Virus record (IMG/VR): IMGVR_UViG_3300028399_000005
Location: 19,943 to 83,942 of that record
Direction: 5' to 3' (one strand)
Length of the DNA stretch: 64,000 bases
Source of the DNA: a virus
Each line of letters begins with the position of its first letter. The stretch's first letter is position 1. Position numbers and translations under genes: made by a program. Under the pieces are notes generated by a model. That model saw only the letters and a program-made list of their open reading frames with translations. It ran no database searches and was not told where the DNA came from. Below, one piece after another: positions 5,796-62,445 of this stretch.

Positions 5796-6677
5796 ATGAC
5801 AGAAAAAGAAGGCAACAATGTCGAAATTCCCCGAATAACCCCTGTTTTCGCCCCGTTAGAGCCACTTGACAGCAAGACCCGAACAAAAGATCGGCCAAAA
5901 AGAAAACCCTCGAAAAGACGCAAAAAGCGGGCAATTTCGAGGGCGAAAAAGACCGCCCCGAAAGTAGTCATCACGATCGACGTCCGAGAGCAAGGAGCGT
6001 CGAAAATCCAACATTTCCTACGGTCGAAAGGCTGGGACGTTCGTCTCAAGATGATCCCCGTGGGCGACTATATCGTGGAAAGCGACGAGGGCGAATACGT
6101 CATCATCGAGCGGAAAACCGCCCCCGATTTGTTCCGTTCGCTCATCGATGGTAGACTCGATTTGCAGATCACGGAGCTCGGCGCCCACGAGCACTCGATC
6201 GTGGCGATCGTCGGGAGCGCCTACGATCCTCGGGCGAGCGAGAGCATGCGGAACGGCGAGTTCCCGCAACGAGTGGTCAGCGTCTTGACGAGCTTGGCGG
6301 TACGCGTGCCCGCCACGGGCTGGCGTCCGAGCTTGCTCTTCTTACGTAACGAGAACGACTTCATGCTCTCGCTCGACTACATCGCTCGCTTGCTCCGAGA
6401 CCGCCGTATCTATCGAGAAGAGCCCGCAACGCTCTTTCGGAGCTTGCAGAACCCGAGAAAGTCGATTGACGCGAAAGACCCCCGCCTCGTGCACGCGGTG
6501 CGGGTGCGGATCATCTCGAGCATCCCAGGCATCGGGCGCAACATTGCGAGCGAGATCTTGCATCATTTCGACGGCTCGCTCGAAGCGGTGTTCTCGGCGA
6601 CGGTCGATCAATTGGAAAAAGTGCGTGGAATAGGAGCAAAACGGGCGATGATGATCTGGAACTTTCTTCATTCGTGA
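5796..6677 (+). CDS. ERCC4/XPF (Hef-type) structure-specific nuclease with HhH domain
   Basis: IDVRE, GDYIV, ERKT..DL..SL.DGRL..Q motifs; IPGIG and VRGIG HhH motifs. Confidence 0.92.
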   Translation: MTEKEGNNVEIPRITPVFAPLEPLDSKTRTKDRPKRKPSKRRKKRAISRAKKTAPKVVITIDVREQGASKIQHFLRSKGWDVRLKMIPVGDYIVESDEGEYVIIERKTAPDLFRSLIDGRLDLQITELGAHEHSIVAIVGSAYDPRASESMRNGEFPQRVVSVLTSLAVRVPATGWRPSLLFLRNENDFMLSLDYIARLLRDRRIYREEPATLFRSLQNPRKSIDAKDPRLVHAVRVRIISSIPGIGRNIASEILHHFDGSLEAVFSATVDQLEKVRGIGAKRAMMIWNFLHS

Positions 6678-11900: not shown

Positions 11901-12041
11901 CGACATTGGTTCCACGCCAAAGATCGTGCCGAGATTGAAAATGAACTTCGAAACGTCGCTAACGTCGTCCTTCCCGTTCGTCGGGACGGGCTTCGTCTGC
12001 GCTTTCTCGGCTTGGGCTTGGGCGGGTTCTTCTTCGCTCAT
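8967..12041 (-). CDS. portal protein fused to MuF (SPP1 gp7-like) minor head domain
   Basis: Portal motifs (YGWSPL, PQGII, AFLITPSELG, SGLITVNEVRTELGLDP), acidic linker, then MuF motifs RAQTIARTE, DERVCPIC, PPIHPNCRC. Confidence 0.9.
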   Translation of the reverse strand: MSEEEPAQAQAEKAQTKPVPTNGKDDVSDVSKFIFNLGTIFGVEPMSESLVSEQFANVSRKQAIGRMASQLGVSAKQFVDHANLRALAGSVWVQRCTSLIINEVLSFPYEIVPTNPLDDSAKTADLIEEITQFFETVNANEESLKEVLRKGIYDLLTLDQGVIVKNFDPRAYKALETESAQTTIQYVPLDAPAGLLKELFAVDGATFVKQVDANGVVIGYWQLNPFRGKIEFFSNREIVWIARHDTTYSLYGWSPLQSVKQVVESLVRIVENVEKFHDKGDIPQGIIAIFGSLEQFETFRDMWKSEVEGQPYKLPVVGADSEGDLKFIPLTFSRKEIMLLDELEFFQRIVMSAFLITPSELGLTDTVNKAVGYEQKHVMRRATIKPLLKHLEELINREIIPEFDDEKRVQFRWIIDEEAEEELRKQSVISQKLRSGLITVNEVRTELGLDPVPWGNAPFDLNIWLQEAIQRDPELFGLPDYEVVETPGQEEPSDENNDEDSQQGDELDEENIEEQEDDEGEEAKPDDPNAQDQRKFAKKIEAWLKKALVEKTITSERKQIMRVLRQRFPRWSYQKLNYYADLLEKQGIAPALSSDELLPSSFYISEWRPKERVAKNKHRSKPKTVKKKRRNVAKIENRSELLRRALRGIKTLVLAFSRAIRRKIAQLRQELGIDKKLATRYASMDEEQAYIRIRDDPDIRQFVQRVEQELQDVLDEFLDKALVLGVSLVIDENGKPVIQELPDVFDVVDEDAVKILETRKLLVADSVSFDIEQQLRYEIIEGIKAGEGIPKIARRISRVADVPTKRAQTIARTEVLFASNLSKQRAMERAGIKEWIFLAWRDERVCPICEPLHGTEYSIKDLENRPPIHPNCRCTMIAKIEGLENPQSTPTAPIPAESALPIVVEVAETARSYASQGELERSKRLFSALASLLRSVLRIHESVSDEAILREFAKYYDAWAEKAKESAKKKKRCERRRNESVDDCVSRKIPIILEENPRMSREQAVAIAYSLCDCEPEEKTEGGK

Positions 12042-21245: not shown

Positions 21246-21809
21246 CTAAAACTTGAAATAATAGAGGTAGAGGTTGTTCGTCATGGGCACGTGCACGTTT
21301 CGGAAGAACACGCGCAAGAACCGCTCGGTTACTCGCGTGCTCATCCCGAGGTGCAACGCGATGTTCCTTCTCGTGGGGACTCCGTCGAACGACCGAACCC
21401 TTTCGAGAAGGCTCACAAAGAAGCCAGGGGACATGCTGGCTGTTGCATGCTCCTTGATGGCTTCGATGATCATTTTCTTCCGCCCAGAGTAATTGATTGT
21501 AAAAACTCTGGGAGAAAGTTGGTAGTAGCGTGGGTTGTTGCGTAGCATCTTCTTGGCGGTTACGTGGCTGACTCCCTTCTTCTTCGCGTACCAACTTGCG
21601 GAGAAAACGAAGATAGAAGGGATAGAGTGGATCGTCTCGTTGCAGACCTCTGCCCAGCGGATCTTGAGGTACTGAGCTGAGAGGTAGAACGAACGCGGTA
21701 TTGTTGAGTAGAAGACCCTATACTGCCTGTTTTTTACTTTTATCGTTTTCACGGGCTCGCGGTGGCGCTTGTACGCCAGAGTCTGTTTTTCGTCTCGTGG
21801 TATGATCAT
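21246..21809 (-). CDS. putative DNA-binding (wHTH-like) protein
   Basis: Basic protein with PTRRNIALHLGMSTRVTERFL HTH-like segment; class-1 promoter at 21810-21849. Confidence 0.55.
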   Translation of the reverse strand: MIIPRDEKQTLAYKRHREPVKTIKVKNRQYRVFYSTIPRSFYLSAQYLKIRWAEVCNETIHSIPSIFVFSASWYAKKKGVSHVTAKKMLRNNPRYYQLSPRVFTINYSGRKKMIIEAIKEHATASMSPGFFVSLLERVRSFDGVPTRRNIALHLGMSTRVTERFLRVFFRNVHVPMTNNLYLYYFKF

Positions 21810-21920
21810 CAATTACATTATTACACATTGTATTATTTAAAGGTTGTGGTAATAAGATGTTGTCCGCCCGTCGTTATAACGGTTCTTCAATCTTTTATTA
21901 TCGGCGGCGAAAAGATACCC

Positions 21921-23900
21921 ATGAACGAACAAGACGAATCATTCGACCCAGAGAAAGTAGTAGCGAAAATTCTCGATCTTGCGCCGAAAACAGTCCTCAT
22001 CATGGGAAAGATCGGCGAGGACGAAAGAAAGGCGCTTGAGCGCCACATCAAGGAAGAATTCAAGAAGAGCGCCGAAAAGGAGAACGCCCACGCAGAACTA
22101 CTCGGTTTCGCGGACTACTACGGACGGCACCAAAAATACGAAAAAACGAAGAAAGCATTCGGCGACCGAATCGTCGAAGCCCTTGACAGAATCGCAACAA
22201 ACCAAATAGTCGACATTCTCGAAGTGTACCGCCCATTGTTGCTCTCGAAATATTACAACTTTACGCACTTGAACAAAAAAATAGACGGGAGGATCGCAGA
22301 CATTCTCGTCCCCACGAATTTCGAGCGAGTCTTTCTATCTACACTGTTCGTCGGCGAAATAACGCACTTGGCAACAGGCGCCGAGCTCGTGGGGAGTATT
22401 TCCCGTCCAGACCTCGAATTCAAGGCGAAAGAAAGCGATTTCGACGTTCGGGCGTTTTCCACGCACGAACTCACGTTCGCAACGGCGGTCGGTTTCACGC
22501 TCGAAAAAGTGTTCAAGCGTTTGCTCGCACGCGTTACGCAAACGGCGTATGAGAACGACGTGCCAAACGTCGTGGCGACCGTTGATCGGTTCGTAGCGTC
22601 GATTAAAGGACGAGAACTCTTGCTCGAGCTCGTCGAAGACCCTGGCTTCGACTTGCAAGTGCGGGAATGGGAGAGCCTCGGAATGCTCGATGAGTCAGTC
22701 ATCGATCCTCGAGAAGCCGTCCGCGAGCACGCCCTTCAAGAACCGACGGCGTCTTTCCGAACGTTGTTCTTGCCCTTCGACTCAAGGTTTTTCTCCCGCG
22801 AGAACAAACAACGCATGCTCGACCTCTTCGAGCATGATAAAGACGGTGCTGTCCTCGTCGGCGATAGCTACGTGGCCTTGCGCGTGCTTGCGGATGACGC
22901 TACCATTAACAAGAGCTTCGTCCAGACCATTTTCATCGATCCGCCGTTCAACAAGCCGAACGAGGCGAACTACAAGTATAGCGTCAAGATCGGCGACGAC
23001 GTCTGGATTGCCATGCTCCGCTCAAGGCTTCGGCTCGCAAGGGAGCTCTTGCACGAGACGGGCTCGATCTTCGTTCGATGCGACTATGAGGGCTCTCACT
23101 ACGTCCACCTTCTTCTCGACGAGATTTTCGGCAAGAAGAATTTCCGCAACGAAATCGTCGTCAAGCGCTCGAACCGCATCAAGAGCCCGACGTCTCGCTT
23201 CTTGTCGTGGCACGACGTTGTGTTCTTCTATGCGAAAAGAGCGGACAGAGCTTTTTTCAAAGAGCTTGTCGTCGATGAAGAGGCACGCAATGGCTGGCGG
23301 GGAATGGACATGCCAGGCGATTCTTACGAGGTCGTCCCCTCGGGGCTCGAGTCATTATTCGAGCCGTGGATGCTTGAGAAAGACTCTTATGAACAGACAG
23401 TTACTCGTGCGAGGCTGTTCTTCGGAAAACCTATCATGCCCCCGCCAGGGCGCAGATTCCCTTCCCAAGCAAAAATCAACGAAGAGATCGAGAAGGGCAA
23501 TATTCGCTTTTCTCGCTCGGGGCGCCCGTTGATCCGCAAGCGTGGCTACAAGGTGCTTACCGACGATTGGACGGACATTTTCGGCTACAAGAACCGCTTC
23601 GGGTTCACGACGGAGAACAGCGAGGAACTGCTACGACGCGTGATCATGGCAACTTCGAAGGAAGAGGACGTTGTGCTCGACTTTTTCGCTGGTAGCGGGA
23701 CGACCCTTGCCGTGGCGCACAAGCTCGGGCGAAAATGGGTCGGCGTAGAAATCAACGACCACGCTTTCGAGGTGCTCATCCCCCGCATGAAGAAAGTGCT
23801 GTTCTACGACGAAGGAGAGATCAGCTCGTTGAAAGAAGTCAGAGAAAAATACAACAAACGCCGAGCTGGCGGGGTCTTCTACTATTACTCTTATGAATAG
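21921..23900 (+). CDS. beta-class adenine DNA methyltransferase (Mod-like) with long N-terminal extension
   Basis: IFIDPPFN, KNFRNEIV, VLDFFAGSGTTLAVAHKLGRKWVGVE. Confidence 0.9.
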   Translation: MNEQDESFDPEKVVAKILDLAPKTVLIMGKIGEDERKALERHIKEEFKKSAEKENAHAELLGFADYYGRHQKYEKTKKAFGDRIVEALDRIATNQIVDILEVYRPLLLSKYYNFTHLNKKIDGRIADILVPTNFERVFLSTLFVGEITHLATGAELVGSISRPDLEFKAKESDFDVRAFSTHELTFATAVGFTLEKVFKRLLARVTQTAYENDVPNVVATVDRFVASIKGRELLLELVEDPGFDLQVREWESLGMLDESVIDPREAVREHALQEPTASFRTLFLPFDSRFFSRENKQRMLDLFEHDKDGAVLVGDSYVALRVLADDATINKSFVQTIFIDPPFNKPNEANYKYSVKIGDDVWIAMLRSRLRLARELLHETGSIFVRCDYEGSHYVHLLLDEIFGKKNFRNEIVVKRSNRIKSPTSRFLSWHDVVFFYAKRADRAFFKELVVDEEARNGWRGMDMPGDSYEVVPSGLESLFEPWMLEKDSYEQTVTRARLFFGKPIMPPPGRRFPSQAKINEEIEKGNIRFSRSGRPLIRKRGYKVLTDDWTDIFGYKNRFGFTTENSEELLRRVIMATSKEEDVVLDFFAGSGTTLAVAHKLGRKWVGVEINDHAFEVLIPRMKKVLFYDEGEISSLKEVREKYNKRRAGGVFYYYSYE

Positions 23901-24658
23901 CGCTTTTTGGGTTTGCCGACCACTCGGTCTCGCCATAAAAACAGCCCGCTCGTTTCCTTGCTCCCGAAGTGGTTGAACTCGCTGTCGAAAAACGTCGAGA
24001 GACGGGCGTTCTCCCATCCACCGTTGATTCTGGCGAGCTTTTCATAGACGGACGGCACGGGGACATCGTGCTCGACAATGTAGGCCCAGACGTCTTTCGC
24101 CGTCCACTCGGCGATCGGGAACGCCGTGTCCGTGAACCCGCTCTTTTTCGGTTCTATCCACGTTCCCGTGCGTCGCTTCGCCTCGGCGATCCGCGCTCGG
24201 CGCTTCTGGGACTCTTGGGATCGTAGACCGAGGAAACAGACGTCCCAGCCGTGGCGTTTCACGGCTTCCGACAAACGGGGGAAAAACGGCGATTTAGCGA
24301 TGTGTGATTCTCTTGCGGACGGTTTATCGCCCCCAGGCCTTTTCTCGTAACTATGGCGAGAAAAAGGGGCAATCTGGTCAATTCCTTGCAAGATCTCTTT
24401 CTCGATCCAACGGGGGATCAACCATTCGCCGTAGTCCCAGTGGCGAACCCAGACGTCCCTCTTGTACTGGACGACGAGATGGAGCATCGCCATGGAGTCC
24501 TTCCCGCCAGAGACGGCGACATAGGGGTTTTGATAGCTCGCCAAGACTCGGCGAATGAACGAGCGGGACGTGGCTACCTTGCGCCGATACTCCGACGTGT
24601 TCGTGTGTAGGAGAAAGCCAGCGATGACGGGTTTCGGCATGAATTTGGACGGTTTCAT
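23891..24658 (-). CDS. cysH: CysH/PAPS-reductase-like protein of type IV-B CRISPR-Cas
   Basis: VAVSGGKDS PP-loop, GLRSQES..R, PIAEWTAKDVWAYI; last gene of the csf operon. Confidence 0.88.
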   Translation of the reverse strand: MKPSKFMPKPVIAGFLLHTNTSEYRRKVATSRSFIRRVLASYQNPYVAVSGGKDSMAMLHLVVQYKRDVWVRHWDYGEWLIPRWIEKEILQGIDQIAPFSRHSYEKRPGGDKPSARESHIAKSPFFPRLSEAVKRHGWDVCFLGLRSQESQKRRARIAEAKRRTGTWIEPKKSGFTDTAFPIAEWTAKDVWAYIVEHDVPVPSVYEKLARINGGWENARLSTFFDSEFNHFGSKETSGLFLWRDRVVGKPKKRYS

Positions 24659-25449
24659 TGCGCAAGACCTATTTTTTGCTTTACTTGGGCGGAGAGCTCG
24701 CACTTTGCGCCGACGGGGACGCACGCGTCGATGTTTCGTCTGTCCCAGTACGGCGGTTTCCAGGCGAGGTAGGCGAAGTCGTCGTATTCGTCGCAGTAGC
24801 GCGTCGGGATGGGTCGTAGCGCTTCTTTTGTTTTCGGGTTCCAGAAGCTCGCCTTGTCGGGGTTTGGCTTGATCTCGACATGGCTGACTTCGCCGAAGCC
24901 GTAGGCGGTCTTTTTCCCGAGCCCCGTAACGTGTGCTATGAGCGATAGCAAGGAGTAGGGCTTCGCCTCGACGAAGACGTCGGCGTATCGGGCGGAAATG
25001 TAGGGGATTCTGATCGAGTAGTTCTTGAACGTCCCAGAGCCGAGGCTGATCTTGCTCTTCTTCCCGCCGATCTTGTGGGCGTCTGGCTCGTGGAAGCGTT
25101 TGTAAACATACTCGATGTTCGCCCGCTCCTCGACGTTGATGAGCTTCCCGTCGGCGTCCTTGAATAGGATGACAGAGGAGTGATAGAAGTACGTTTGGCG
25201 GATTGGCATGGGCAACGCTCGGACGCGCTTTCCGAGGGGGTCGTTCGAGGGGAGCATGTAGTAGTCTTGCCCGAGGGTGAGGCGGAGCAACATGTGCGCC
25301 ACGAGCCCGTCGAAGTTGATCCACGGGTGCGTGATCATGACGGGCGCTTTCAAGTGGAACCGCACGAGGACGTGCGCCCACTCTTCGCCTTTGAGCGTGG
25401 CGTAGTACTCCGTCGGCGTGTCCGCGAGCAAGTATTGCCGTAGGAACAT
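24655..25449 (-). CDS. csf3: type IV Cas5 (Csf3) RAMP
   Basis: INFDGLVAH, SGTFKNY, Gly-loop GLGKKTAYGFGEV, LRPIP, PPYW. Confidence 0.88.
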   Translation of the reverse strand: MFLRQYLLADTPTEYYATLKGEEWAHVLVRFHLKAPVMITHPWINFDGLVAHMLLRLTLGQDYYMLPSNDPLGKRVRALPMPIRQTYFYHSSVILFKDADGKLINVEERANIEYVYKRFHEPDAHKIGGKKSKISLGSGTFKNYSIRIPYISARYADVFVEAKPYSLLSLIAHVTGLGKKTAYGFGEVSHVEIKPNPDKASFWNPKTKEALRPIPTRYCDEYDDFAYLAWKPPYWDRRNIDACVPVGAKCELSAQVKQKIGLAQ

Positions 25450-25453
25450 AGCG

Positions 25454-26344
25454 TCATCCCTTCTTCTTGAACGATGAGAAATCGATTTTCTGGGCATCAA
25501 TCGCCTGCAAGAGCGCCAAGATGTCGTCTTGATTTTCTTCGACGAATCTTAGATACGTTTCTTCTTTTCCGAGTGCGCTCAAGGCAGTCTTGTCGTAGTC
25601 TGGACGCAACGCGCCGAGCCCGATGCTTGACTTCCCGCCGACGTAGCAATTGTTCTCCCAGATTCGGAACGCTCTTCGGAAGAACGCTTCTTCGACGGGC
25701 GTGGGGTCTTCGAGGACGAAAGCGTGCGTCAGCCTCGTGCCAGGGATCAAGACCTCGTATTCGACGAGCATTTGTTGTGCTTGTTCGCCTTCGTCCCGCT
25801 CGGCTCTGAGCTCGTCTTTGCGGGTCTGGTAAGTGTCGCTCATGAGCTCGTGGAAACTGAATTCGGCGCCCCTAACCGTTGAAGGGTCGAACGTGATCCC
25901 TTCGAGCTCCTTGCAGATCGGGAAAGCGTTCATGACCTTGAGCTTTCCCGTGAACGCTTGGTTGAGGAAGGACGAGCCGAAAACACTAATGGGGGGCAAG
26001 AGGTATCGGATGGTCTTCCTCGCTTCGAGGTTGAGCGTCCCGCTGTCCTTCGAGGACACTTTCTCGAGGTTCCCGCCCGAGTAGAAAAAGTGGTAGAGTC
26101 TGGCGGTCTCGAATCGGTGTCTTTGGCCCTCTCTGTAGCCCACGAGGTCGAGGAAGTCCTTCATGACGAGGCGTCGCAGGCGCCCTCTGATTGCATTTCC
26201 GCTGATGTAGGGCACTTCTTGGATCCCCTTGTTCGTGATCATTTCGATTCTTCGGAACCCGATCGTGGATCCCGTTTTTTCGTTCCCGCCGTGGTGGACG
26301 GGGGAAAGAGCTGTCAATATTCCGCTGATTTTAATTGTCTTCAT
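25454..26344 (-). CDS. csf2: type IV Cas7 (Csf2) backbone subunit
   Basis: TALSPVHHG, VPYISGNAIRGRLRR, YEVLIPGT, VGGKSSIGLG. Confidence 0.92.
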   Translation of the reverse strand: MKTIKISGILTALSPVHHGGNEKTGSTIGFRRIEMITNKGIQEVPYISGNAIRGRLRRLVMKDFLDLVGYREGQRHRFETARLYHFFYSGGNLEKVSSKDSGTLNLEARKTIRYLLPPISVFGSSFLNQAFTGKLKVMNAFPICKELEGITFDPSTVRGAEFSFHELMSDTYQTRKDELRAERDEGEQAQQMLVEYEVLIPGTRLTHAFVLEDPTPVEEAFFRRAFRIWENNCYVGGKSSIGLGALRPDYDKTALSALGKEETYLRFVEENQDDILALLQAIDAQKIDFSSFKKKG

Positions 26345-26370
26345 TCTTTTTTTCTCAACTCCTTTTGTTC

Positions 26371-26706
26371 TTACTTTTCATGGCACGAGCAATAGCAACC
26401 GAAGGCTTTGTAGCTCACGTTGCATCGCTCGGTGCATCTTCTGTCCGAGTGATGGCGAAACTCGAACTTTTTCTTGAGCGTCCACTTGACCTTTCTCGGC
26501 GAGTAGCCTACCGAGAAAAGCCCTTCGTGGGTCTTTTCTGTGGCAACGATCTCTTGGAAAAGCTCGTATTTCTCGAGCTCGCCGACGAGCGAGGAGACAA
26601 CTTCCCGCAAGCGGTTCGTGATCTCGCTCGCCACGATTTGGGCGAGGAATACAAGATCGTCCCGTGATTCTTCGCCGTGCATTGTTTCTTCCGTTTCTTC
26701 CGTCAT
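26371..26706 (-). CDS. extra ORF inside the type IV-B operon with Cys/His-rich C-terminus
   Basis: HHSDRRCTERC...CYCSCHEK; ATG overlaps the cas11 stop. Confidence 0.6.
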   Translation of the reverse strand: MTEETEETMHGEESRDDLVFLAQIVASEITNRLREVVSSLVGELEKYELFQEIVATEKTHEGLFSVGYSPRKVKWTLKKKFEFRHHSDRRCTERCNVSYKAFGCYCSCHEK

Positions 26707-27131
26707 TCTTCATCATCCTTTGCTTTTCGTTGCTTTTCCTTCCGCTTCTCGCGTAGCAACTGCGAGTATCTTCGAGCGAGCATCACGCAGAGCTGGGACT
26801 CCGTGCGGACGGTGTCGAGGAACTCGTCGGCGTATTTCTCCGCCTCGAGGATGAGCTCTGGCTCATCATGGAGCGCTTGGATGCTCAGCTGGTTGCAGAG
26901 CTTGTTCACGAACTTTGCAACGGTCGGCTTGCGGGAAGAGTTCTTGATTCTGTGCTCGAAAATGTCCGTGGCGATCTTGGACGTGCTCATCTGGTGCCAG
27001 TTCACTTGGTAGTAGACCCTTCCGAGAAGGGCGGAGATGAGCTCGTACACTCGCTTTTTTCTTGGCGAGACCCACGAGAGGTCTTGGCCTGGCAATATTT
27101 CTTCGAGGCTAAAAGTAGATTTCTGCGCCAT
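26703..27131 (-). CDS. cas11: Cas11-like small subunit
   Basis: Small helical protein (VNW...DIFEHRIKNSS...FVNKLCNQL) between csf1 and csf2. Confidence 0.7.
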   Translation of the reverse strand: MAQKSTFSLEEILPGQDLSWVSPRKKRVYELISALLGRVYYQVNWHQMSTSKIATDIFEHRIKNSSRKPTVAKFVNKLCNQLSIQALHDEPELILEAEKYADEFLDTVRTESQLCVMLARRYSQLLREKRKEKQRKAKDDEE

Positions 27132-27879
27132 AGACTTCGCCTTCTTCTTCTTTCTTTCGTTTTTTCGATTGCTTCTCGGGCTTCTTAGTATCTTTGCGGA
27201 GCGTCTTCATGGTCGTGAGCTTCTTCGGCGTATCCGTGCACTTGACGACGAGCTCCCAGGCGGGGTTCCCCGCGAACTTCTTCGCCTCGTAGTAGTGCTG
27301 TATCGCCCCGACCTCGACGAGCGTCTCGATGATCGAGCTGTTGGTCTCGAGCGTTTCGAGGCGCTTCTTCCCGAAAAATGGCATGAGCGCGTCGACGAGT
27401 CCCGTGATTTTCTCGTAGCTTCGTGGCGTGAACCGTGCGACGTCTTCTTCGAAGATCACGACGAATCTGTTGATTGACCCCTCGTTCGACGGCGTGTTGA
27501 TGGCGAACGGGTTCACGATCCATCCGTGCTTCTTGAAGCTCTTCGTTACGAAGATTGCGAAGGGCTCGTTTCGAGCGAGCGCTTCGGTGAGGACGTCCCG
27601 AAACTCGTTGAACTTGAACGCCTTGAACCTTGCGGGGGAAACAACCCAGTTCGTTTTTCGGACTGTCGCTTCTTTGAGCGCCCCCGCACAAAAAACGCAG
27701 AGCCCGTGGCCCGCTTTCAAGTGCTGGAATCCCGTGAAATTGCCCGAGACTACTCTCTTGATGTCCACGAGCTCGTCGACGGTCTCCATGCAAATATAGC
27801 ACCTACCGTGGTGCTTTTCGCCCGAGATTGGCTCGATCATTTTTGCTTGTGCGAGCAGGCGTGGTATTGTGAGAATCAT
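27109..27879 (-). CDS. csf1: Csf1 (Cas8-like) large subunit
   Basis: CYIC...LCVFC Zn motif, EPFAIFVTKSFKKHGW; first gene of the csf operon. Confidence 0.8.
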   Translation of the reverse strand: MILTIPRLLAQAKMIEPISGEKHHGRCYICMETVDELVDIKRVVSGNFTGFQHLKAGHGLCVFCAGALKEATVRKTNWVVSPARFKAFKFNEFRDVLTEALARNEPFAIFVTKSFKKHGWIVNPFAINTPSNEGSINRFVVIFEEDVARFTPRSYEKITGLVDALMPFFGKKRLETLETNSSIIETLVEVGAIQHYYEAKKFAGNPAWELVVKCTDTPKKLTTMKTLRKDTKKPEKQSKKRKKEEEGEVYGAEIYF

Positions 27880-27928
27880 CAAGCAATCGACGATTTATCG
27901 AGAATCGCTGTATAATAGCCTTGCTCGC

Positions 27929-27973
27929 CGTTATAACGATACTTTTCTTTCTTTAGGTGAACTTGTTATAACG
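27929..27973. promoter_or_regulatory. two CGTTATAACG-type operators serving divergent promoters (csf operon and small ORF)
   Basis: cgttataacg at 27929-27938 and tgttataacg at 27964-27973, each ~11-12 bp from a TATA-like box. Confidence 0.7.
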
Positions 27974-28014
27974 AGGCGAAAATCGTTTAAGAATCGGGCG
28001 GAAAACATACAAAT

Positions 28015-28140
28015 ATGAAGATCGAAAAACTATCAAGATACTTTAGAAAAACAGAAGCGCGCCAGAGACCCATGAGCGGTTTTCAGAAGCACGTTCGCGC
28101 GTTCCGTCGTTTCCGATTTCGTGCGGTCATGTCTTCATAG
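28015..28140 (+). CDS. small Arg-rich peptide (41 aa), not in ORF track
   Basis: MKIEKLSRYFRKTEARQRPMSGFQKHVRAFRRFRFRAVMSS; ATG ~25 nt after tttaag box. Confidence 0.45.
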   Translation: MKIEKLSRYFRKTEARQRPMSGFQKHVRAFRRFRFRAVMSS

Positions 28141-28144
28141 GCGA

Positions 28145-28216
28145 AGTAGGCAAAGAAAGGAAAAAAGGGCGGAGCAGAGCTCCGAAAGGCAAAGGCGGAG
28201 AGGAAGCGGTAGGCGC
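28145..28216 (-). terminator. cassette A 3' element: CU-hexamers, CGGAGC-TCT-GCTCCG hairpin and pyrimidine tract
   Basis: Homologous element at 28535-28608. Confidence 0.6.
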
Positions 28217-28348: not shown

Positions 28349-28402
28349 GGTACATCCCTGTCGTCGGGCGGGTCTCCTTCCCCCTTGCGGGGGTAACCCA
28401 CC
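28349..28402 (-). ncRNA. conserved structured 5' leader, copy A
   Basis: GGUGGGU-UA-CCCCC-GCAA-GGGGG-AAGGAG-ACCCGCC-CGACGAC. Confidence 0.7.
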
Positions 28403-28534
28403 AATATAATATAGGAAGGAGAAATATAAAAAGGTTGTGGTAAAGGTAATCAATATGTTTGTATTTTTCTGATAAAAAATAAGAGAAACTTGGCAGGCGG
28501 TTTATTACAAAAAAATGACAAAAAATAGCGCGAC

Positions 28535-28608
28535 GGAAGCGGTAGCAAAGAAAGAAAAGAAGGGGCGAAGCAAAGCTCCGCAAAGTTAGGAAGGCAAAGT
28601 TGAAGGGC
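28535..28608 (-). terminator. cassette B 3' element: CGGAGC-TTT-GCTTCG hairpin and pyrimidine tract
   Basis: Homologous to 28145-28216. Confidence 0.6.
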
Positions 28609-29016
28609 TTATAAGTCCAGTTTTCTACCGTATGCTTCGAGGAGCGCCGTAAGCTCCAAATCTATTAGGCCTCTCTCATTTGAGAGGAAGCCCAATAGAT
28701 TCAAGGTATGGCGGGCGTCTAAGAAGTCGTCCACCTTCGATCGGAAGGCGATCCGAAGGAAGGTATAGACGATGTGGTAGGCGAGGTCTCGGGCGGTCAT
28801 GCCCTTCGTCTCATAGACCGCTTGTGCGAGCTCGAAGGCTCTCACAATGGTCTCGTTCATCTCGGCTTCGAACTCTTCTGGATTCATGCGTTGCGATAGC
28901 GCAGACGCAATGAAGTCCTGGAAGAGCCCGTCTATTTCGTTCAAAGCGTGCTCGTCTATCGGGGCGTCGCCCGATAATGGACGGACACGCTTAGCGTCGA
29001 ACGTTTCGTCTGCCAT
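28609..29016 (-). CDS. hypothetical protein, cassette B
   Basis: MADETFDAK start after the conserved leader. Confidence 0.65.
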   Translation of the reverse strand: MADETFDAKRVRPLSGDAPIDEHALNEIDGLFQDFIASALSQRMNPEEFEAEMNETIVRAFELAQAVYETKGMTARDLAYHIVYTFLRIAFRSKVDDFLDARHTLNLLGFLSNERGLIDLELTALLEAYGRKLDL

Positions 29017-29071
29017 AGTCCATCTCTCCGTCGTCGGGTGGTGTTCCTTCCCCGCATGGGGGTGCACCACC
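29017..29071 (-). ncRNA. conserved structured 5' leader, copy B
   Basis: GGUGGUG-CA-CCCC-CAUGC-GGGG-AAGGAA-CACCACC-CGACGAC. Confidence 0.7.
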
Positions 29072-29394
29072 AATATAATATAGGAAGTGGTAATATATAA
29101 ACTTTGTGGGAAATTGGTAGATAATTGCACTCTAAAAGTGTTGCGAGGAGCAAGAAAACGAATCTCGCCTGTCCGCCCGCTGGGGGTGGCGGGTGTTTAC
29201 GTCAATCAAACGTCTATTCTTTTAGACAAGCGACTGATTGGGGTACTATTTACGCCAATTTGAAAAGTTGCTAATTAATAAAGGAATTAATTAACAAAAC
29301 TTGCAGGGAATTCTGCGTGCGGAAAAATATAATCATTAAAAAACGGCGATCGATCGAATCAAGGAAAGAAGAAGGCGAAGAAAGGCGGGGTTTG

Positions 29395-29796
29395 TCAAAG
29401 GTTGTTATAAACTATCTCGAGCGCTCTTCGGATTGTGAGTGTCTTCGGTGGGCGCTTGTAAGGGGCGTAGCCGACGTCCCATACGAGCGTCCCTCGAATG
29501 CTAACCCGTGCACTCCCCTCGAAGAGGAGCTCGTCGTCTGGACTGTACGCCTTGACAACGATGTCGTGCACGGTAACGCTGTATTCCGTGCCAGGCCATG
29601 GTCTGCCCTTGTAGCGCTCGACTTCTACAAGGGCGATCTCGAGCCGTACCGAGCCCTTGTTCGAGTCCACGAAAAGCGTGAGCTCGTCAAGGGCGTCGTA
29701 GTCGTCGCGTAATACGAGGGCTACCCCCTCGAAGCCGTTCCCAGCCACGAAGGAGTAGCCCTTCAACTTAGAGTTATAGGCTAACTTCATTCTCAT
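29395..29796 (-). CDS. hypothetical protein, cassette C
   Basis: MRMKLAYN start after the conserved leader, with GGTGA SD. Confidence 0.65.
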   Translation of the reverse strand: MRMKLAYNSKLKGYSFVAGNGFEGVALVLRDDYDALDELTLFVDSNKGSVRLEIALVEVERYKGRPWPGTEYSVTVHDIVVKAYSPDDELLFEGSARVSIRGTLVWDVGYAPYKRPPKTLTIRRALEIVYNNL

Positions 29797-29848
29797 AGTA
29801 TCACCGTCGCCGAGCGAGTCTCCTTCCCCCATAAGGGGGTAACCCGCT
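29797..29848 (-). ncRNA. conserved structured 5' leader, copy C
   Basis: AGCGGGU-UA-CCCCC-UUAU-GGGGG-AAGGAG-ACUCGCU-CGGCGAC. Confidence 0.7.
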
Positions 29849-29952: not shown

Positions 29953-30309
29953 CTAAGAATGATGACGAACGCCTTGTTCGCGAAGGTCGTCGATGACCTC
30001 GGCAAGCATCTCTTGAGCCTCGTCGATGGTCGCAAGCATCCCTTCGAGGACGGCGAACTCGTCGAGCTCGGGGTTCCCAGAAAAGACGCGAACCCAAGGA
30101 ACGACGGGCATCATGACGAAATCGTCGTAGCGCAGAACTGCGATGACTTTCTCAGTCGTCTTGTCCTTGACCGTAGCGGTCTTCGCAGTGCGTTCGTACT
30201 CTATAATTACCCTGTCAAATTCCTCAACAGCATCGAGCGCTTGGTATATCCTATCTATAACGACATTGCTAATGTCGAACGACGATTCTATATAGATCTG
30301 TTTCATCAT
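29953..30309 (-). CDS. acidic hypothetical protein
   Basis: ORF after variant promoter ccacaaagtttttgta (30310-30347). Confidence 0.65.
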   Translation of the reverse strand: MMKQIYIESSFDISNVVIDRIYQALDAVEEFDRVIIEYERTAKTATVKDKTTEKVIAVLRYDDFVMMPVVPWVRVFSGNPELDEFAVLEGMLATIDEAQEMLAEVIDDLREQGVRHHS

Positions 30310-30412
30310 GACTAATAATACCAGCCCAGAATACAAAAACTTTGTGGAATTTAAAACCAGCTATAAGAGAACACCACAAAATCTAAATATTTCAACTTCG
30401 CATAGTATATTG

Positions 30413-30931
30413 ATGAAGACCAGATTACTATCCAAGGGCGGATGGCGTATCCACGTCGTCGCCATGAAAATACTTGAAGAATTCATGCCACGCACGATCC
30501 CTTGCCCCGCGTGCGGACAAGGGGAAGCAACGCTCGACCCAGACTTCTCGGGCGAACGCCCTACCGTAGCGTACGCCCACGAGGGCCACAAGACCACAAC
30601 TGACGTTTTCGACGACGGTCTCAAACAAAAATTCGAGACCGCCCGCGAGCTGTTCCGCGAGCTACGGCTCGCCTCGCTGGCGGACGTGTTCGAGCTCACC
30701 GAAAAACAAACCCGAGCACTCGAAAAACTCGTCAAAGAAGAGTTTCTCCGACATGTAGCCGACGGGGGCTTTCGAGGGTTCTCCGAGAGGAACGGCCCGA
30801 TCGACCGCCACTATCTCAGAGCGTTGCGCAAGAAAGGGCTCTTGCGCCACGAAAACGGTAAATACTTGACTAAGGACTGGGTCGCCACGTACGTGGTCGT
30901 CTTCGGAGTGGAATCCCCGATCGGGCTCTGA
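30413..30931 (+). CDS. Zn-ribbon plus wHTH-like hypothetical protein
   Basis: CPACG motif; YLRALRKKGLL; promoter variant ccacaaaatctaaata at 30374. Confidence 0.6.
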   Translation: MKTRLLSKGGWRIHVVAMKILEEFMPRTIPCPACGQGEATLDPDFSGERPTVAYAHEGHKTTTDVFDDGLKQKFETARELFRELRLASLADVFELTEKQTRALEKLVKEEFLRHVADGGFRGFSERNGPIDRHYLRALRKKGLLRHENGKYLTKDWVATYVVVFGVESPIGL

Positions 30932-30951
30932 CGCGTCGACAGGCGGTGTAC

Positions 30952-31750
30952 TATTTTTTTCATATTTTTCGCGTTATTTTTCATATTCTTTTCATTTTTT
31001 AATTCCTATCGAGAAGGTCTGAATCTATTAAATTCTAAAGAATCGATGATTATTTTTTATTTTTCAATGGGGGGTGCGATAGGCATAATTATGTTCCTCG
31101 AGAATCTACGAAGCGCCGAAACTCGGAAAAACAGCAACAAGAGATTTTTTTGACTTTTTCGCGTTATTTTTCACATTCTTTTCAATTTCTAAAATTGTTT
31201 CTTACGCTTTGAACCCTTTAAATTTTGGATTTCCCATGATTATTTTTTATTTTTCAGTACCCCCTGCGATAGGCATGCCCCATTGGTGCCCCCTATAATA
31301 ATATAATATAGGGTACAGGCAGTGGCGGTTTCGGGAATAGTTTGGAATCATATACTTTAGTATATGATATATAATTAAGAATAAGAATCTGGGTTGATTC
31401 TAACCTATCGTATATAGTATTGAAAATAATAAAAAAATAATAAGAAAATAGTAAAAAATGAAAAATTAGAAGCCCTTGTAGGCATTTAGAAAACTGAAAA
31501 TAATGTGAAAAATAACGCGAAATATTGAAAAAAATAAACTTGGAATATAGGGTATGATTTTTGCTTTTTTCTTAGTTTTTTAGGGTTTCAGGCTTTGGTA
31601 TTAGGAATCAAGAATCTATACGCGATCGCGGGGGGTACTGAAAAATAAAAAATAATCGTCGATTCTTTGGAGTCATGAGTTGAGCGTTGTGTTTATTGCG
31701 ATTCATGATTCTGAAAAAAATGCGCGAAAAAAGGTAAAAAATTTTAAAAA
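30952..31750. repeat. AT-rich symmetric region with two direct and two inverted ~130-bp repeats; putative replication origin
   Basis: tttttcgcgttatttttca...gattattttttatttttca...gcgat at ~30955-31086 and ~31147-31276; inverted copies at ~31408-31535 and ~31625-31745; central palindromes. Confidence 0.7.
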
Positions 31751-31940
31751 ATCGTTTGTGCGGTCGAGGGGCTGTCTTCTCAAAACTCGGGGCTGTAGTC
31801 GCGAAAAACAAGAGATTGGCGGGGCGAGTTTTCGGCGACCCGCGATTGATTGTGGGAAACACGAACATCTACGGACGCTCCGAAACCTCGTTCTAACAAC
31901 TCGTAACCGTTTTTTAAGCGGTTTTCGAGAGTAGCACAGA

Positions 31941-32489
31941 ATGATGCTCGATAATGCAAGACTCGATGAAATGATTAGAAGAGCCCGTGAACGGCGGGAA
32001 AAGCGAGAAAAAGCGATACTGCAAGAAATAACGCGCAACGCGAGGACGCCACGGTTCTTCCCCGTTGCCGAGCGCCACATTGGCGAGGGCCTCAAGCGGG
32101 AGTTCTTGAACTCCGCAGAAGCTCGGAAGATGCCTCGCACGCTTATCGACCTCGTGGAAAACGTTGCCCCCTCGGCGAAGCCGATTTTTTCAAAGTACAC
32201 GCTCAGCATTCGCCCGCTCCCGAAGTGGATCGGGGAGCGCAACTGGCAGGCGCTGACGAAGTACTACAAGCAGTGGTGGTTCGAGTGGCGGGACAGAATC
32301 TGGCTCTTCCATGCGGGGAGCAGTGCGTTGCAGTTGCGGGACGTCTATCGTCTCGAGGTCGTGGCGGAGCACGAGAGGCTCCCGATCGGCGGGATTTTGT
32401 TGCTCGAGCTCTATCGCATGGGGCGCCCCGCCCGCAAGTACTGCAACAAGAAAGGAATCCCGTACTATGATTATTTGACACTTCCGTGA
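31941..32489 (+). CDS. hypothetical basic protein
   Basis: ORF after cgttctaaca operator (31889) and ttttttaag box. Confidence 0.65.
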   Translation: MMLDNARLDEMIRRARERREKREKAILQEITRNARTPRFFPVAERHIGEGLKREFLNSAEARKMPRTLIDLVENVAPSAKPIFSKYTLSIRPLPKWIGERNWQALTKYYKQWWFEWRDRIWLFHAGSSALQLRDVYRLEVVAEHERLPIGGILLLELYRMGRPARKYCNKKGIPYYDYLTLP

Positions 32490-32581
32490 AAACGGGAAAA
32501 TAATATGTTTTTTTTAGTCGCTCGTTAGAACGATAATAAACGCTATTATAATTTCTGTTTAAAAACGCATTTTGGTGAGAA

Positions 32582-33734
32582 ATGGGAATCCGATTCATTC
32601 CAAAAAAAGAATGTGATGTGGGTTTAGCTCGAAATGGAGTATTGGACTTCGGTAAAAAGAAACTTCCTACTCCCTTTCTTTGGTTTGGCTTATCAAATCG
32701 AGAATCTGTAGTTTTTCAAAAAACAGTATTTGAAAGTGCGATGATCGAAGGAATCATGGCAAATGCATACGACCTTATGTTTCAAGATAGGACTGGCTCT
32801 CGAACTGAAATGGTCAAAGAATTGTCTCGCTCAGGGCTCGTAGTAAAATGTGATAGCGGGGGTTACCAAATACTTAAGAGAGGGAAAAAAATCGATCGAT
32901 CCAAAGTTCTGAGGTTTCAAGAAGATTTGAATTGCGATTTGATGGTTCAACTCGATTATCCCATATTAGGTTCTGATCCTCGAGAACTTAAGAAAAAACA
33001 TATTGATAAAACCCTCAATAATCTGGAATATGCTTTGAAAACAGCTAATCGTCCAGAAAGAATTGTTCCAACTATTCATGGACACGATTCCGAGTTATTG
33101 CGTTATCAAGCAAAAAAAAATTACAGATCTCCTTGGCGAAACCCCGCCTATTATTAGTGTTGGTTCTTTGGTTCCTCTACTTTTTAATTCAAAAGGAGCA
33201 AAAGGGGTTGGAGGTAAAGCAAAAGCTTTGGAAGTTATAAGGATTGTTCGAAAACTTTTTCCAAAAACAATGATTCATGCTCTCGGTATTGGGGGCGCTC
33301 TTACATATCTCGCTATATATTTTGGCGCAGATAGTTTCGATAACAACGGTTGGATACAAAAAACTGGTTTCGGCGTAATTCAAGTTCCTGGATCATCGGA
33401 TCGGTTTCTTGGAACCCCGCCGAATGGCAGAAAGAAAATTGATACTGACGAAATAGCCTATCATAGATGGCTTGAATGTGTGTGCCCAGCTTGTAGGAGT
33501 TCTTCTAATAGAAGTGTATTCATTGGACGAGATGAGAGCGCAAGGCTAAATCGAGGAATACATAACGCCTATACATTTCAAGCGGAAATTTGGAGAGTAA
33601 GGAGATATATCCATGAAGGCCAATATATCAACTTTATAAAAGAGAGAATGAAAAATTCTATATATTTGCGGATTTTACAAGAGGAATTAAATCGTAACGA
33701 TCATGAAAAAATATTTAACGATGTGTGGTTTTAG
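32582..33734 (+). pseudogene. tRNA-guanine transglycosylase (TGT/DpdA-like) gene interrupted by a +1 frameshift in an A9 tract
   Basis: LPTP, DSGGYQ and QLDYP in the first ORF; HALG, GADSFD and CVCPAC..H in the second; A9 at 33112-33120; visibly AT-richer than its neighbours. Confidence 0.8.
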
Positions 33735-33835
33735 ACCGAGAAACTGTTCAGTTTATTTAGATACTATGATCCAAATATGAAGAATTTTTAGCGTTTTTTT
33801 AGTAGATCGTTAGAACGAGACCTTACGTTTTTATT

Positions 33836-34744
33836 GTGTCGCCACGAATAGCCGAAAGAATGTTTTCGAAACAAGCAGTAGTCCTCGACGTTCACGACGA
33901 GATCCGCGAGAAGCTCAAGCGGATCTATCAAGAGTTTTATCCGCCAGTGCTCCTTGACGGACAGCCAGGCGCTGGGAAGACGTTCCTCGCCAAGCGAGTG
34001 GCGCAAGAACTCGGGTACGACCTTATCGAGGTGAACGCCTCGATGAACACGACGCAAGCGCAGATCGACCGCCTCAAGGACATCGCCTCGATCCAACGCG
34101 ACGAGCCGACAGTGCTCTTGCTCGACGAGATCGAGTCCACGTTCACGAGCGAGGAGATCGCCGATCTCGTGGACTTCGTTGCGATGAATGGGCGAGCGAA
34201 CAAGATCATGCTCGTGGCGACGGCGAACAACGCCTGGCGATTGTCGAACGCTATCCGCGAGAAGTTCTCCGTCATCAAGCTCCGACAGCCCACGTTGCGC
34301 GAGGTTCGCTCGGCGCTCAAGAAAGCGCGGGTCAGCCTCGACGGGCAGTTCATCACCCGCGATTTGCGCCAGCTCGTCCGATCCATAGAGCTTCAGAAAA
34401 GGGGCATATTGCCCCGAGAATCGACGGACGCGACGTTCGCCGTATCTTTTTCCACGGTTTCGGATTTCGTCGCAGGATCGATCGAAAAACGGCAAAATAT
34501 CATGGACGACGGGAAGCTTTATCGTCTGCGCCCCGCGATCGAGAAGTGGCTTGTTTACAACGCCCTCGCCGAGACTATCATGAAGAAGCACACGATCGAG
34601 TGGCACGAGACGCTCGAGCTGTTGTCGCTCTACGACGCCCTCGGGCGCAACAAGAACGTGCTCTTGACGCTCCCTCGCTTCTCGATCGGGTTCGGCGAGC
34701 TAAAGCACCCGACGCAACTTTTTAGGCAAGGCAAGAATCAATAG
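33836..34744 (+). CDS. RFC-like clamp-loader AAA+ ATPase
   Basis: GQPGAGKT, ELGYDLIEVNAS, LLLDEIE, ATANN. Confidence 0.82.
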   Translation: MSPRIAERMFSKQAVVLDVHDEIREKLKRIYQEFYPPVLLDGQPGAGKTFLAKRVAQELGYDLIEVNASMNTTQAQIDRLKDIASIQRDEPTVLLLDEIESTFTSEEIADLVDFVAMNGRANKIMLVATANNAWRLSNAIREKFSVIKLRQPTLREVRSALKKARVSLDGQFITRDLRQLVRSIELQKRGILPRESTDATFAVSFSTVSDFVAGSIEKRQNIMDDGKLYRLRPAIEKWLVYNALAETIMKKHTIEWHETLELLSLYDALGRNKNVLLTLPRFSIGFGELKHPTQLFRQGKNQ

Positions 34745-34885
34745 ACAATGGGGTCGTAATTTCGTGATAGCGTTCGATTTCCGCCCGATTCTTCGACGAA
34801 AAATATTTTTCCGACCAATTCTTCGTTCGGCGAAGAACTCACAAAGAATCGCAAAAAATCGCACAAAAACAAGGAGTGAATAAAA

Positions 34886-37383: not shown

Positions 37384-37508
37384 TGGCGGTGCTCGCGAGC
37401 CTCGCACTCGCTCTCCTTTTCGGGCAGAGCCACCTTCTGCCCTATCCGCTTCCCCCGCGTGGTGGCTTGGGCGGGTTTCACGGAAAGGAGCGGGCTATTC
37501 CCAGCACC
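37384..37508 (-). ncRNA. 125-nt tRNA-like RNA with CCA end and kissing-loop domain
   Basis: 5' GGUGCU pairs with 3' AGCACC-G-CCA; T-arm-like GCGAG-UGCGAGG-CUCGC; BRE/TATA cgaaaaacatataa ~24 nt upstream; CTTTTTT downstream. Confidence 0.75.
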
Positions 37509-62106: not shown

Positions 62107-62180
62107 TTGGCATCTTTTTCAAAATCTCTGATCGACTAAAAAAGCCTTGTGCGCTGTTATAATCCCATGGAGCGAGCGGA

Positions 62181-62445
<265 letters not shown>

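Follow-up and report, generated by a model that had tools for sequence, protein, structure and literature searches.

A type IV-B CRISPR-Cas effector operon with an additional small gene in a tailed virus of a likely archaeal host

The 64,000-base stretch of DNA analysed here (hereafter the window), which covers bases 19943-83942 of the linear, 83,942-base IMG/VR record IMGVR_UViG_3300028399_000005, carries a type IV-B CRISPR-Cas effector operon at positions 23891-27879. The operon is almost certainly a genuine, selected module of this subtype, comprising Csf1, Cas11, Csf2, Csf3 and a CysH-like enzyme (CasCysH) together with one lineage-specific small gene, designated ORF111 (an open reading frame, ORF, of 111 codons). 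With a probability of roughly 40%, and by analogy with a related archaeal system, we infer that the RNA partner of the encoded complex is taken from the CRISPR RNAs (crRNAs) of the host and that no guide is supplied by the virus itself. The completeness of the record was estimated by CheckV as 77%, and about 23% of the genome lies outside the data. Coordinates refer to the window unless the contig is named. The six ORFs of the operon are as follows:

27109-27879, minus strand: csf1, type IV large subunit, 256 amino acids, with a CxxC...CxxC zinc-finger motif (PADLOC Csf1_0_IV, E 9.5e-21)
26703-27131, minus strand: cas11, type IV small subunit, 142 amino acids (PADLOC Cas11_0_IV, E 9.2e-24)
26371-26706, minus strand: ORF111, 111 codons, N-terminus predicted as a long helix, C-terminus with a Cys/His cluster; 4-base ATGA overlap with the cas11 stop
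25454-26344, minus strand: csf2, type IV Cas7 backbone subunit, 296 amino acids (PADLOC Csf2_0_IV, E 4e-65 over residues 1-285; Pfam RAMPs, 7.3e-11)
24655-25449, minus strand: csf3, type IV Cas5, 264 amino acids from the ATG at 25449 (PADLOC Csf3_0_IV, E 1.7e-43; TIGR03116, 1.6e-15)
23891-24658, minus strand: cysH-like gene (CasCysH), PP-loop ATP-pyrophosphatase family, 255 amino acids (Pfam PAPS_reduct, 1.2e-16)

This gene set, with its coordinates and its tight or overlapping junctions, had been proposed in an original prediction made from the sequence alone, and all six ORFs were recovered at these coordinates, on the minus strand. Adjacent genes overlap by 4 to 23 bases or are separated by gaps of 4 and 26 bases, and there is very little doubt that they form one translationally coupled operon with its own upstream control region. 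The overlap of cas11 with csf1 is 23 bases, the 26-base gap before csf2 contains the motif AAGGAG, the ATG of csf3 lies 4 bases past the csf2 stop, and the start of the cysH-like gene overlaps the csf3 stop as ATGA. The start of csf1 was placed at the ATG at 27879, with a TTG at 27882 also possible, and the longest ORF of csf3 would begin at a TTG at 25500. The operon is flanked by a DNA methylase gene and three small ORFs without an assigned family, and no DinG or RecD helicase was found in the locus, the only helicase found lying 30 kb away (a helicase hidden Markov model, HMM, was not run on every ORF).

HMM typing, which the original prediction had suggested as a check, gave matches of four genes to PADLOC type IV models with E-values from 9.5e-21 to 4e-65, and the cysH-like protein scored 61.7 bits against Pfam PAPS_reduct (cut-off 22.5), which bears out the call of the operon as a complete type IV-B effector set that includes cysH. 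The best NCBIfam matches, cas7_csf2 (TIGR03115; 46.8 bits of a 130-bit cut-off) and cas5_csf3 (TIGR03116; 57.3 of 140), both remained below the curated cut-offs. Assignment to another RAMP system was considered and rejected, the type III models being far weaker (Csm3 5e-12 vs Csf2_0_IV 4e-65 in PADLOC). In the PHROGs library, Csf2 and Csf3 fall into phrog_22746 (1.3e-35) and phrog_34599 (6.3e-8), both tagged 'unknown function', and type IV-B genes in phage records are therefore not recognised as such by that library.

The subtype was assigned on the basis of gene content. Comparison with solved structures places the backbone as near to type IV-C1 as to the solved type IV-B complex: the Csf2 of the window matched Cas7c of the archaeal type IV-C1 structure (PDB 11fs_C) at 7.8e-14 (55.1 bits) and Csf2 of the mycobacterial type IV-B structure (7jhy_e) at 6.1e-12 (48.9 bits, residues 11-260), and a Csf2 profile of the clade ranked the former (1.8e-28, 103 bits) above the latter (2.7e-17, 66 bits). 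The Csf2 tree consists of 72 rows, all from loci with type IV-B gene content. A Cas11 profile of 33 sequences matched Cas11c of the same type IV-C1 structure (11fs_N, E 3.3e-5). For Csf1, the profile matched Csf1 of type IV-A (8rc3_G, E 0.0025) and Cas10IVc only at E 0.071 over the zinc-finger stretch; among 33 aligned Csf1 sequences, C27, C30 and C61 are invariant and C64 is nearly so.

The operon type recurs widely. Homologues of Csf2 numbered 170 in a large protein collection, the best being 98% and the next 58% identical (P0002). A scan of viral contigs with the single Csf2 protein matched nothing, whereas alignment-based scans recovered type IV-B operons on 42 IMG/VR contigs, nine genome contigs and nine metagenome contigs (loci L001-L060, including plasmids and metagenome-assembled genomes, MAGs), to whose Csf2 proteins that of the window is at most 54% identical. 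A Csf2 relative was found in a single one of 50,697 deposited phage records, that of Skermania phage SPI1. In the first 51 loci, searched with jackhmmer over their ORFs, csf2 was present in 51, cas11 in 48, csf1 and csf3 each in 47 and cysH in 44, the missing genes being mostly explained by contig ends; the gene order was identical in these and in the nine further loci, and is the same as here. The viral records searched over their whole length numbered 41, of which 11 were at least 90% complete and seven had terminal repeats. In the closest fetched relative (L052), a GNAT gene lies between csf1 and cas11 (1681-2073). The interval between csf3 and cysH holds an N6/N4 DNA methylase, ParB_N, DUF3440-type PAPS-reductase-like, GNAT or PD-(D/E)xK gene in L010-L013, L020, L022, L025, L030, L033 and L058.

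A diverged variant of the operon was found in run X2, a second vent metagenome from another study, in which 141 differences over 2,167 bases from cysH to csf2 (6.5%) were counted. Indels in this variant comprise an in-frame 6-base insertion in csf1/cas11 and one-base changes confined to the upstream non-coding region, where 42 of the 429 bases upstream of csf1 differ. Of 40 differences listed individually (190 further ones exist), 36 fall in cysH and csf3, and 27 of these are synonymous. The type IV-B genes are under purifying selection. The idea that the operon is a hitch-hiking or decaying remnant without present function draws on the lack of an array and a nuclease and on the NCBIfam equivalog scores below cut-off; it is extremely unlikely in view of the intact and coupled frames, the predominance of synonymous changes in the listed part of the variant and the presence of the same operon in 60 other loci.

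Neither an array nor the genes for making or processing one were found in the record. No exact 18-mers spaced by 40-120 bases occur in the window or the remaining contig, and a search for repeats of at least 22 nucleotides with at most two mismatches, spaced by 48-95 bases, returned only a heptad tandem near the contig end; a repeat search with a maximum distance of 110 found nothing CRISPR-like at 23-31 kb, and an Rfam scan at the gathering threshold found no CRISPR repeat family. Models for Cas6 (Cas_Cas6_C, TIGR01877), Cas1 and Cas2 gave no match at E <= 1 in the 83,942-base contig. The earlier statement that the window holds no cas1, cas2, cas6 or repeat-spacer array was thereby extended to the whole record; no other RAMP system was assigned by HMM and no array with cas6 lies elsewhere in it. 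The array-less status holds for these 83,942 bases, and an array could lie in the missing part of the linear, 77% complete genome. Among the 60 related loci, arrays were absent with two exceptions: L058 has a true repeat-spacer array (1-235), 5 kb upstream of the operon, and L038 has two 28-nucleotide repeats spaced by 71 bases directly upstream of csf1 (5838-5936), possibly a mini-array. In L016 (11575-12273) and L039 (11572-12270), from IMG/VR records G016 and G038, csf3 and cysH are separated by a Cas6b-like gene (PADLOC 1e-74); no array occurs anywhere in these two records of 82 kb and 87 kb, the latter being 100% complete according to CheckV. From the gene content of these records, the Cas6b-like enzyme would most simply serve to process host transcripts. 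Twelve exceptional type IV-B loci with Cas6 were reported previously (PMC7038947).

The carrier is a tailed virus (Caudoviricetes), as is evident from a Phage_portal domain fused to a Mu_F domain (Pfam, 8967-12041) and from PHROG matches in the window to tape measure, minor tail protein, baseplate hub and fibres; the contig also encodes a replication set of family B polymerase, ERCC4+HhH nuclease, primase-polymerase-like proteins and helicase. The host is likely an archaeon and probably heat-loving, as judged from several indirect features of the sequence and its source. In the Csf2 tree, the row of the window lies inside a well-supported clade of 11 metagenomic rows, the sister of which contains rows from a Desulfurococcales MAG, Infirmifilum and a Methanocaldococcus plasmid, plus one alphaproteobacterial MAG. 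A TATA-type motif has 13 occurrences in the window, where 0.09 are expected, and 18 in the contig as a whole, mostly 18-29 bases before a start codon, a spacing that suggests leaderless archaeal-style transcripts. The Rfam tRNA model spans 118 bases in the window, which implies an insert, and both sequencing runs with this DNA are labelled hydrothermal vent metagenome; no RNA run was among the runs found to hold it. The family B polymerase, the ERCC4+HhH nuclease and the primase-polymerase, along with a STIV B116-like ring nuclease, also count among the indirect signs of an archaeal host. In the claim of an 'archaeal tailed virus', the second part was thus established by the portal, tape measure and tail genes, and the first is likely on these indirect features.

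A counter-defence setting is provided by two genes of the same contig, upstream of the window: a STIV B116-like ring nuclease of the AcrIII-1 family (E 2.9e-29; G000:C1:12543-12830, minus strand), directly preceded by a class I promoter motif, and a Cas4-like nuclease domain (E 2.9e-8) in a 347-amino-acid frame (G000:C1:9223-9555, plus strand). The type IV-C1 module, which is array-less, was reported to be loaded with crRNAs that stem from distant host arrays, also when transplanted (PMC13676074). Host crRNAs are favoured as the RNA partner because this nearest solved relative of the backbone, itself archaeal, loads crRNAs of host arrays, and because the AcrIII-1 and Cas4-like genes share the contig. 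The lack of an array, Cas6, Cas1 and Cas2 in the contig and the two related records that have a Cas6b-like gene but no array fit this reading. In the proposed mechanism, Csf2 and Cas11 would assemble along an RNA as two intertwined filaments with Csf3 and Csf1 as caps, and the bound RNA would be drawn from the host pool of Cas6-processed crRNAs. Such a complex, without a nuclease, would withhold guides from the host effectors as a counter-defence, or would use them to bind competing elements, and the cysH-like enzyme, with its PP-loop and no redox cysteine, might modify the bound nucleic acid or a ligand, by adenylation or in another way.

Several observations weigh against host-crRNA loading. 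The Csf2 of the window, taken alone, matches type IV-C1 and type IV-B almost equally, the class I promoter motif found before the AcrIII-1 gene is absent before csf1, and 23% of the genome was not seen. In the published accounts, type IV-B was found to be negatively correlated with host CRISPR systems, and a multi-protein crRNA sponge was judged unlikely by Pinilla-Redondo et al. (PMC7038947). The only type IV-B complex purified so far, encoded on a plasmid of Mycobacterium sp. JS623 and made in E. coli, bound heterogeneous non-CRISPR RNA and not the co-expressed type I-E crRNAs (PMC7937560, PMC8175902). That result, together with the fact that Csf1 and Csf3 were unresolved in the mycobacterial structure (PMC8175902), would fit a filament that coats any RNA irrespective of sequence and, rather than using guides, has a bulk effect on transcripts of the host or the virus. 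Csf1 and Csf3 are nevertheless conserved across all clades and the Csf1 zinc finger is invariant, and the right RNA may simply not have been present during expression in E. coli; unspecific binding is considered quite unlikely. In other class 1 complexes, Csf1 and Csf3 are the subunits that read the crRNA handle.

The surroundings of the cysH-like gene supply the remaining points against host-crRNA loading, and these support its main rival, a nucleic-acid modification module. In this module the cysH-like enzyme would do the actual work and the Csf ribonucleoprotein would act as its scaffold or direct it to targets; own or host DNA or RNA would be marked, in concert with DNA methyltransferases, so that restriction-type defences are evaded or subverted. 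In 35 aligned CysH-like proteins adjoining csf3, the motif SGGKDS is invariant and no column of conserved cysteine exists, in agreement with the PP-motif and the missing catalytic cysteine described for CasCysH (PMC8175902). The CysH profile matched CysD (1zun_A, 3.8e-16) and PAPS reductases in the PDB, and PADLOC relates the enzyme to DndC, BrxP and QueC, a relationship that speaks for modification, as does the position of cysH beside csf3 in 44 of 51 loci. Modification ranks as the main rival because the methylase, ParB_N, DUF3440-type, GNAT or PD-(D/E)xK genes mentioned above occupy the csf3-cysH gap of many relatives and because a methylase gene converges on cysH in the window:

21762-23900, plus strand: N6/N4 DNA methyltransferase, 712 amino acids, convergent neighbour (Pfam N6_N4_Mtase, 1.4e-37)

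The end of this gene overlaps the cysH stop by 10 bases, and its true start probably lies downstream of 21881. The hypothesis of modification was raised previously (PMC7038947, PMC8175902). Phosphorothioation of the Dnd kind is unlikely because the CysH-like proteins have no conserved cysteine, modification genes are common neighbours in phage genomes anyway and their adjacency was counted without a chance baseline, and the need for an RNA-binding filament is left unexplained; on balance, a modification module is unlikely.

Guides encoded by the virus itself were the candidates of the original prediction, which had named the leaders at 28349-29848, the element at 29165-29233 and the RNA at 37384-37508 as possible partners. 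Loading with such an RNA appears very unlikely, whether the partner were the 29165-29233 element, the 37384-37508 RNA with its tRNA frame, or a leader hairpin (three of these lie at 28.3-29.9 kb). The precedents are real: the archaeal Fuxivirus carries a two-repeat mini-array beside its type IV-B genes, and this, with the repeat pair of L038, implies a virus-encoded guide in some lineages. The three leader hairpins are real as well and lie just upstream of the operon. Their position is, however, that of mRNA leaders, with a promoter on one side and, on the other, an ATG that has an AAGGAG box, no mini-array occurs in the contig, and no candidate has a sequence or structure match in the 60 related loci. 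Searches of these loci by blastn-short and nhmmer with the upstream region, the three leaders, the 29165-29233 element and two tRNA-like RNAs returned only chance matches of 13 to 15 bases; a covariance model with 13 pairs, built on the leader hairpins, recovered from 906,651 bases its own three copies and one match at E 0.69; and when 400-base operon flanks were compared all against all, matches were confined to close clades and did not involve the window, and no non-coding element was common across clades. The regions 29150-29250 and 29250-29394 fold modestly better than shuffles (z -2.2 and -2.5), and nothing links them to the operon. These co-occurrence tests are weak against a host-specific viral RNA, yet they give the viral candidates no support.

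The gene that sets this operon apart is ORF111, encoded in a cas11-csf2 interval of 358 bases. None of the 60 related type IV-B loci has a similar gene, and in each of them the gap between cas11 and csf2, where both genes are present, is 22 bases or less. Its coding nature is indicated by a codon score of 0.34 per codon, compared with -0.44 and -0.53 in the other two frames, and by a GC content at third codon positions of 0.68, like that of its neighbours. The protein belongs to no Pfam, NCBIfam, PADLOC or PHROG family, and only two homologues were found among 1.84 billion representatives: P0121, 92% identical in a word-based search and encoded together with the 98% identical Csf2 homologue on one contig of 3,345 bases, and P0125, 41% identical over residues 32-110 (E 7.7e-9, exhaustive phmmer), from an ENA contig of 1,894 bases to which no Cas11 or Csf2 homologue among the matches listed could be tied. 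All three proteins keep C91, C104, C106, C108 and H109 (a C...CxCxCH tail) and a KYEL...LFS.G.SP.K core; a profile scan with their alignment matched no viral contig.

Structure prediction contributed little. The AlphaFold2 model of ORF111 is poor (mean predicted local distance difference test, pLDDT, 63.7; predicted template modelling score 0.37) and is essentially a single long helix of residues 8-56; the ESM Atlas held no usable match, its own model having a pLDDT of 0.51. A predicted complex of ORF111 with Csf2 and Cas11 received no support (score 0.00, mark 0.32), a result that is uninformative on binding either way. ORF111 is a lineage-specific addition to a known operon type, and its position and coupling to cas11 suggest that it may work with the Csf complex. 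One could combine these elements into an enzymatic anti-CRISPR acting on guide RNAs, in which the Csf complex would capture host crRNAs, CasCysH would adenylate the crRNAs or the nucleic acid paired with them, and ORF111 would be a fifth, lineage-specific subunit adapting the complex to the host crRNA or blocking the host effector; this elaboration is decidedly unlikely.

Type IV-B systems have been described as array-less and cysH-linked, located on plasmids and sometimes prophages and partly present in Archaea, and both crRNA sponge and epigenetic roles were discussed for them by Pinilla-Redondo et al. (PMC7038947), with the same hypotheses in Taylor et al. (PMC8175902). In the 2025 classification, type IV-B is listed without nucleases and arrays and with no demonstrated mechanism. 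The view in the original prediction that the RNA partner and function of type IV-B are unresolved agrees with these sources. The novelty implied by that prediction did not survive comparison with the literature, since array-less or mini-array type IV-B has already been published for two archaeal viruses, a tailed virus of Bathyarchaeia and a virus of Methanoperedens. The first of these, Fuxivirus ('Fuxiviridae'), is a 32-kb tailed virus of hot-spring Bathyarchaeia with type IV-B genes, a two-repeat mini-array and Cas4, presented by its authors as the first type IV-B in an archaeal virus (Duan et al., ISME Commun 2024, PMC10848311). Judged by its published description, it shares with the present virus the set of csf1, cas11, csf2, csf3 and a cysH-like gene in a head-tailed virus without adaptation genes, as well as genes elsewhere in the genome for a Cas4-like nuclease and for a DNA methylase that stands alone; it differs in its mini-array, of which none was found here, in its size of 32 kb as against 84 kb seen (77% complete), and in lacking the extra gene between cas11 and csf2. 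The second is a 41-kb Methanoperedens virus (bioRxiv 10.1101/2023.08.02.551345, 2023), which, likewise compared by description only, has the same array-less csf1-cas11-csf2-csf3-cysH arrangement and differs in host lineage and habitat; its Csf1 was inferred by the authors to be bacterial in origin, and guide-RNA inactivation was proposed by them as a counter-defence.

Among solved complexes, that of Mycobacterium sp. JS623 (PDB 7JHY; Zhou et al. 2021, PMC7937560) agrees in subtype by gene content and is unlike the present one in its bacterial plasmid origin and in scoring below type IV-C1 with the clade profile. The type IV-C1 systems of Pyrococcus abyssi and Thermococcus onnurineus (PDB 11fs/11hc/11hd; Pittman et al. 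2026, PMC13676074) offer the best solved match of Csf2 and Cas11 and are also array-less modules from thermophilic archaea; as described there, they are chromosomal and have a Cas10-like HD nuclease as large subunit, in contrast to the small Csf1, the cysH-like gene and the viral location found here. An array-less viral type IV-B operon is thus a known oddity, of which the present locus is a further example in a larger and different virus. It adds a well-delimited case, from a virus of a probable thermophile, to a CRISPR-Cas subtype that lacks an assigned RNA partner and function, and taken alone it opens the type IV-B question no further than the published loci. What distinguishes this virus is that its operon contains one more gene. 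Type IV-C1 of Thermococcales, which loads host crRNAs, and the solved type IV-B complex are equally close to the backbone, and established archaeal expression hosts could therefore be tried; the AcrIII-1 gene on the same contig fits a counter-defence role.

The region upstream of csf1 has the following features:

27880-28216, minus strand: operon upstream control region, 337 bases, with a palindrome pair, a 16-mer and the terminator-like hairpin of the upstream gene
27929-27938 and 27964-27973: palindrome CGTTATAACG, two copies before csf1
28170-28184: terminator-like hairpin of the upstream gene

The region 27883-28216 folds no better than shuffles (z -0.56 and +0.45). The palindrome CGTTATAACG has 24 strand-wise matches at no more than one mismatch, with about one expected, and is likely the binding site of a dimeric regulator. 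It also occurs at about ten other intergenic sites (2846, 15389, 20334, 21872, 32523, 33808, 37857, 41912 and others); some of these other copies precede polymerase and methylase genes, and some adjoin class I promoter motifs, including that of AcrIII-1. A promoter class of the operon apart from that of AcrIII-1 was considered and had to be dropped, because CGTTATAACG also adjoins class I sites and no clean split into regulons can be claimed. The 16-mer TTTCCGCCCGATTCTT is found exactly at 27989-28004 (minus strand), 34778-34793 (plus strand) and 34808-34823 (plus strand), that is, upstream of csf1 and before a primase-like gene at 34886, with six matches at no more than three mismatches and 1.5 expected.

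Two further regions of the window are of minor note. The stretch 30000-34000, between small-gene cassettes and replication genes, is AT-rich (GC 0.43 vs about 0.52 elsewhere), contains repeated boxes (30955-31002 with 31145-31192, and 31020-31086 with 31210-31276) and may be an origin region. Near the contig end, at 62180-62445, two heptad tandems face each other, AGAAGGT in 11.7 copies and the complement ACTTTCT in 13.9.

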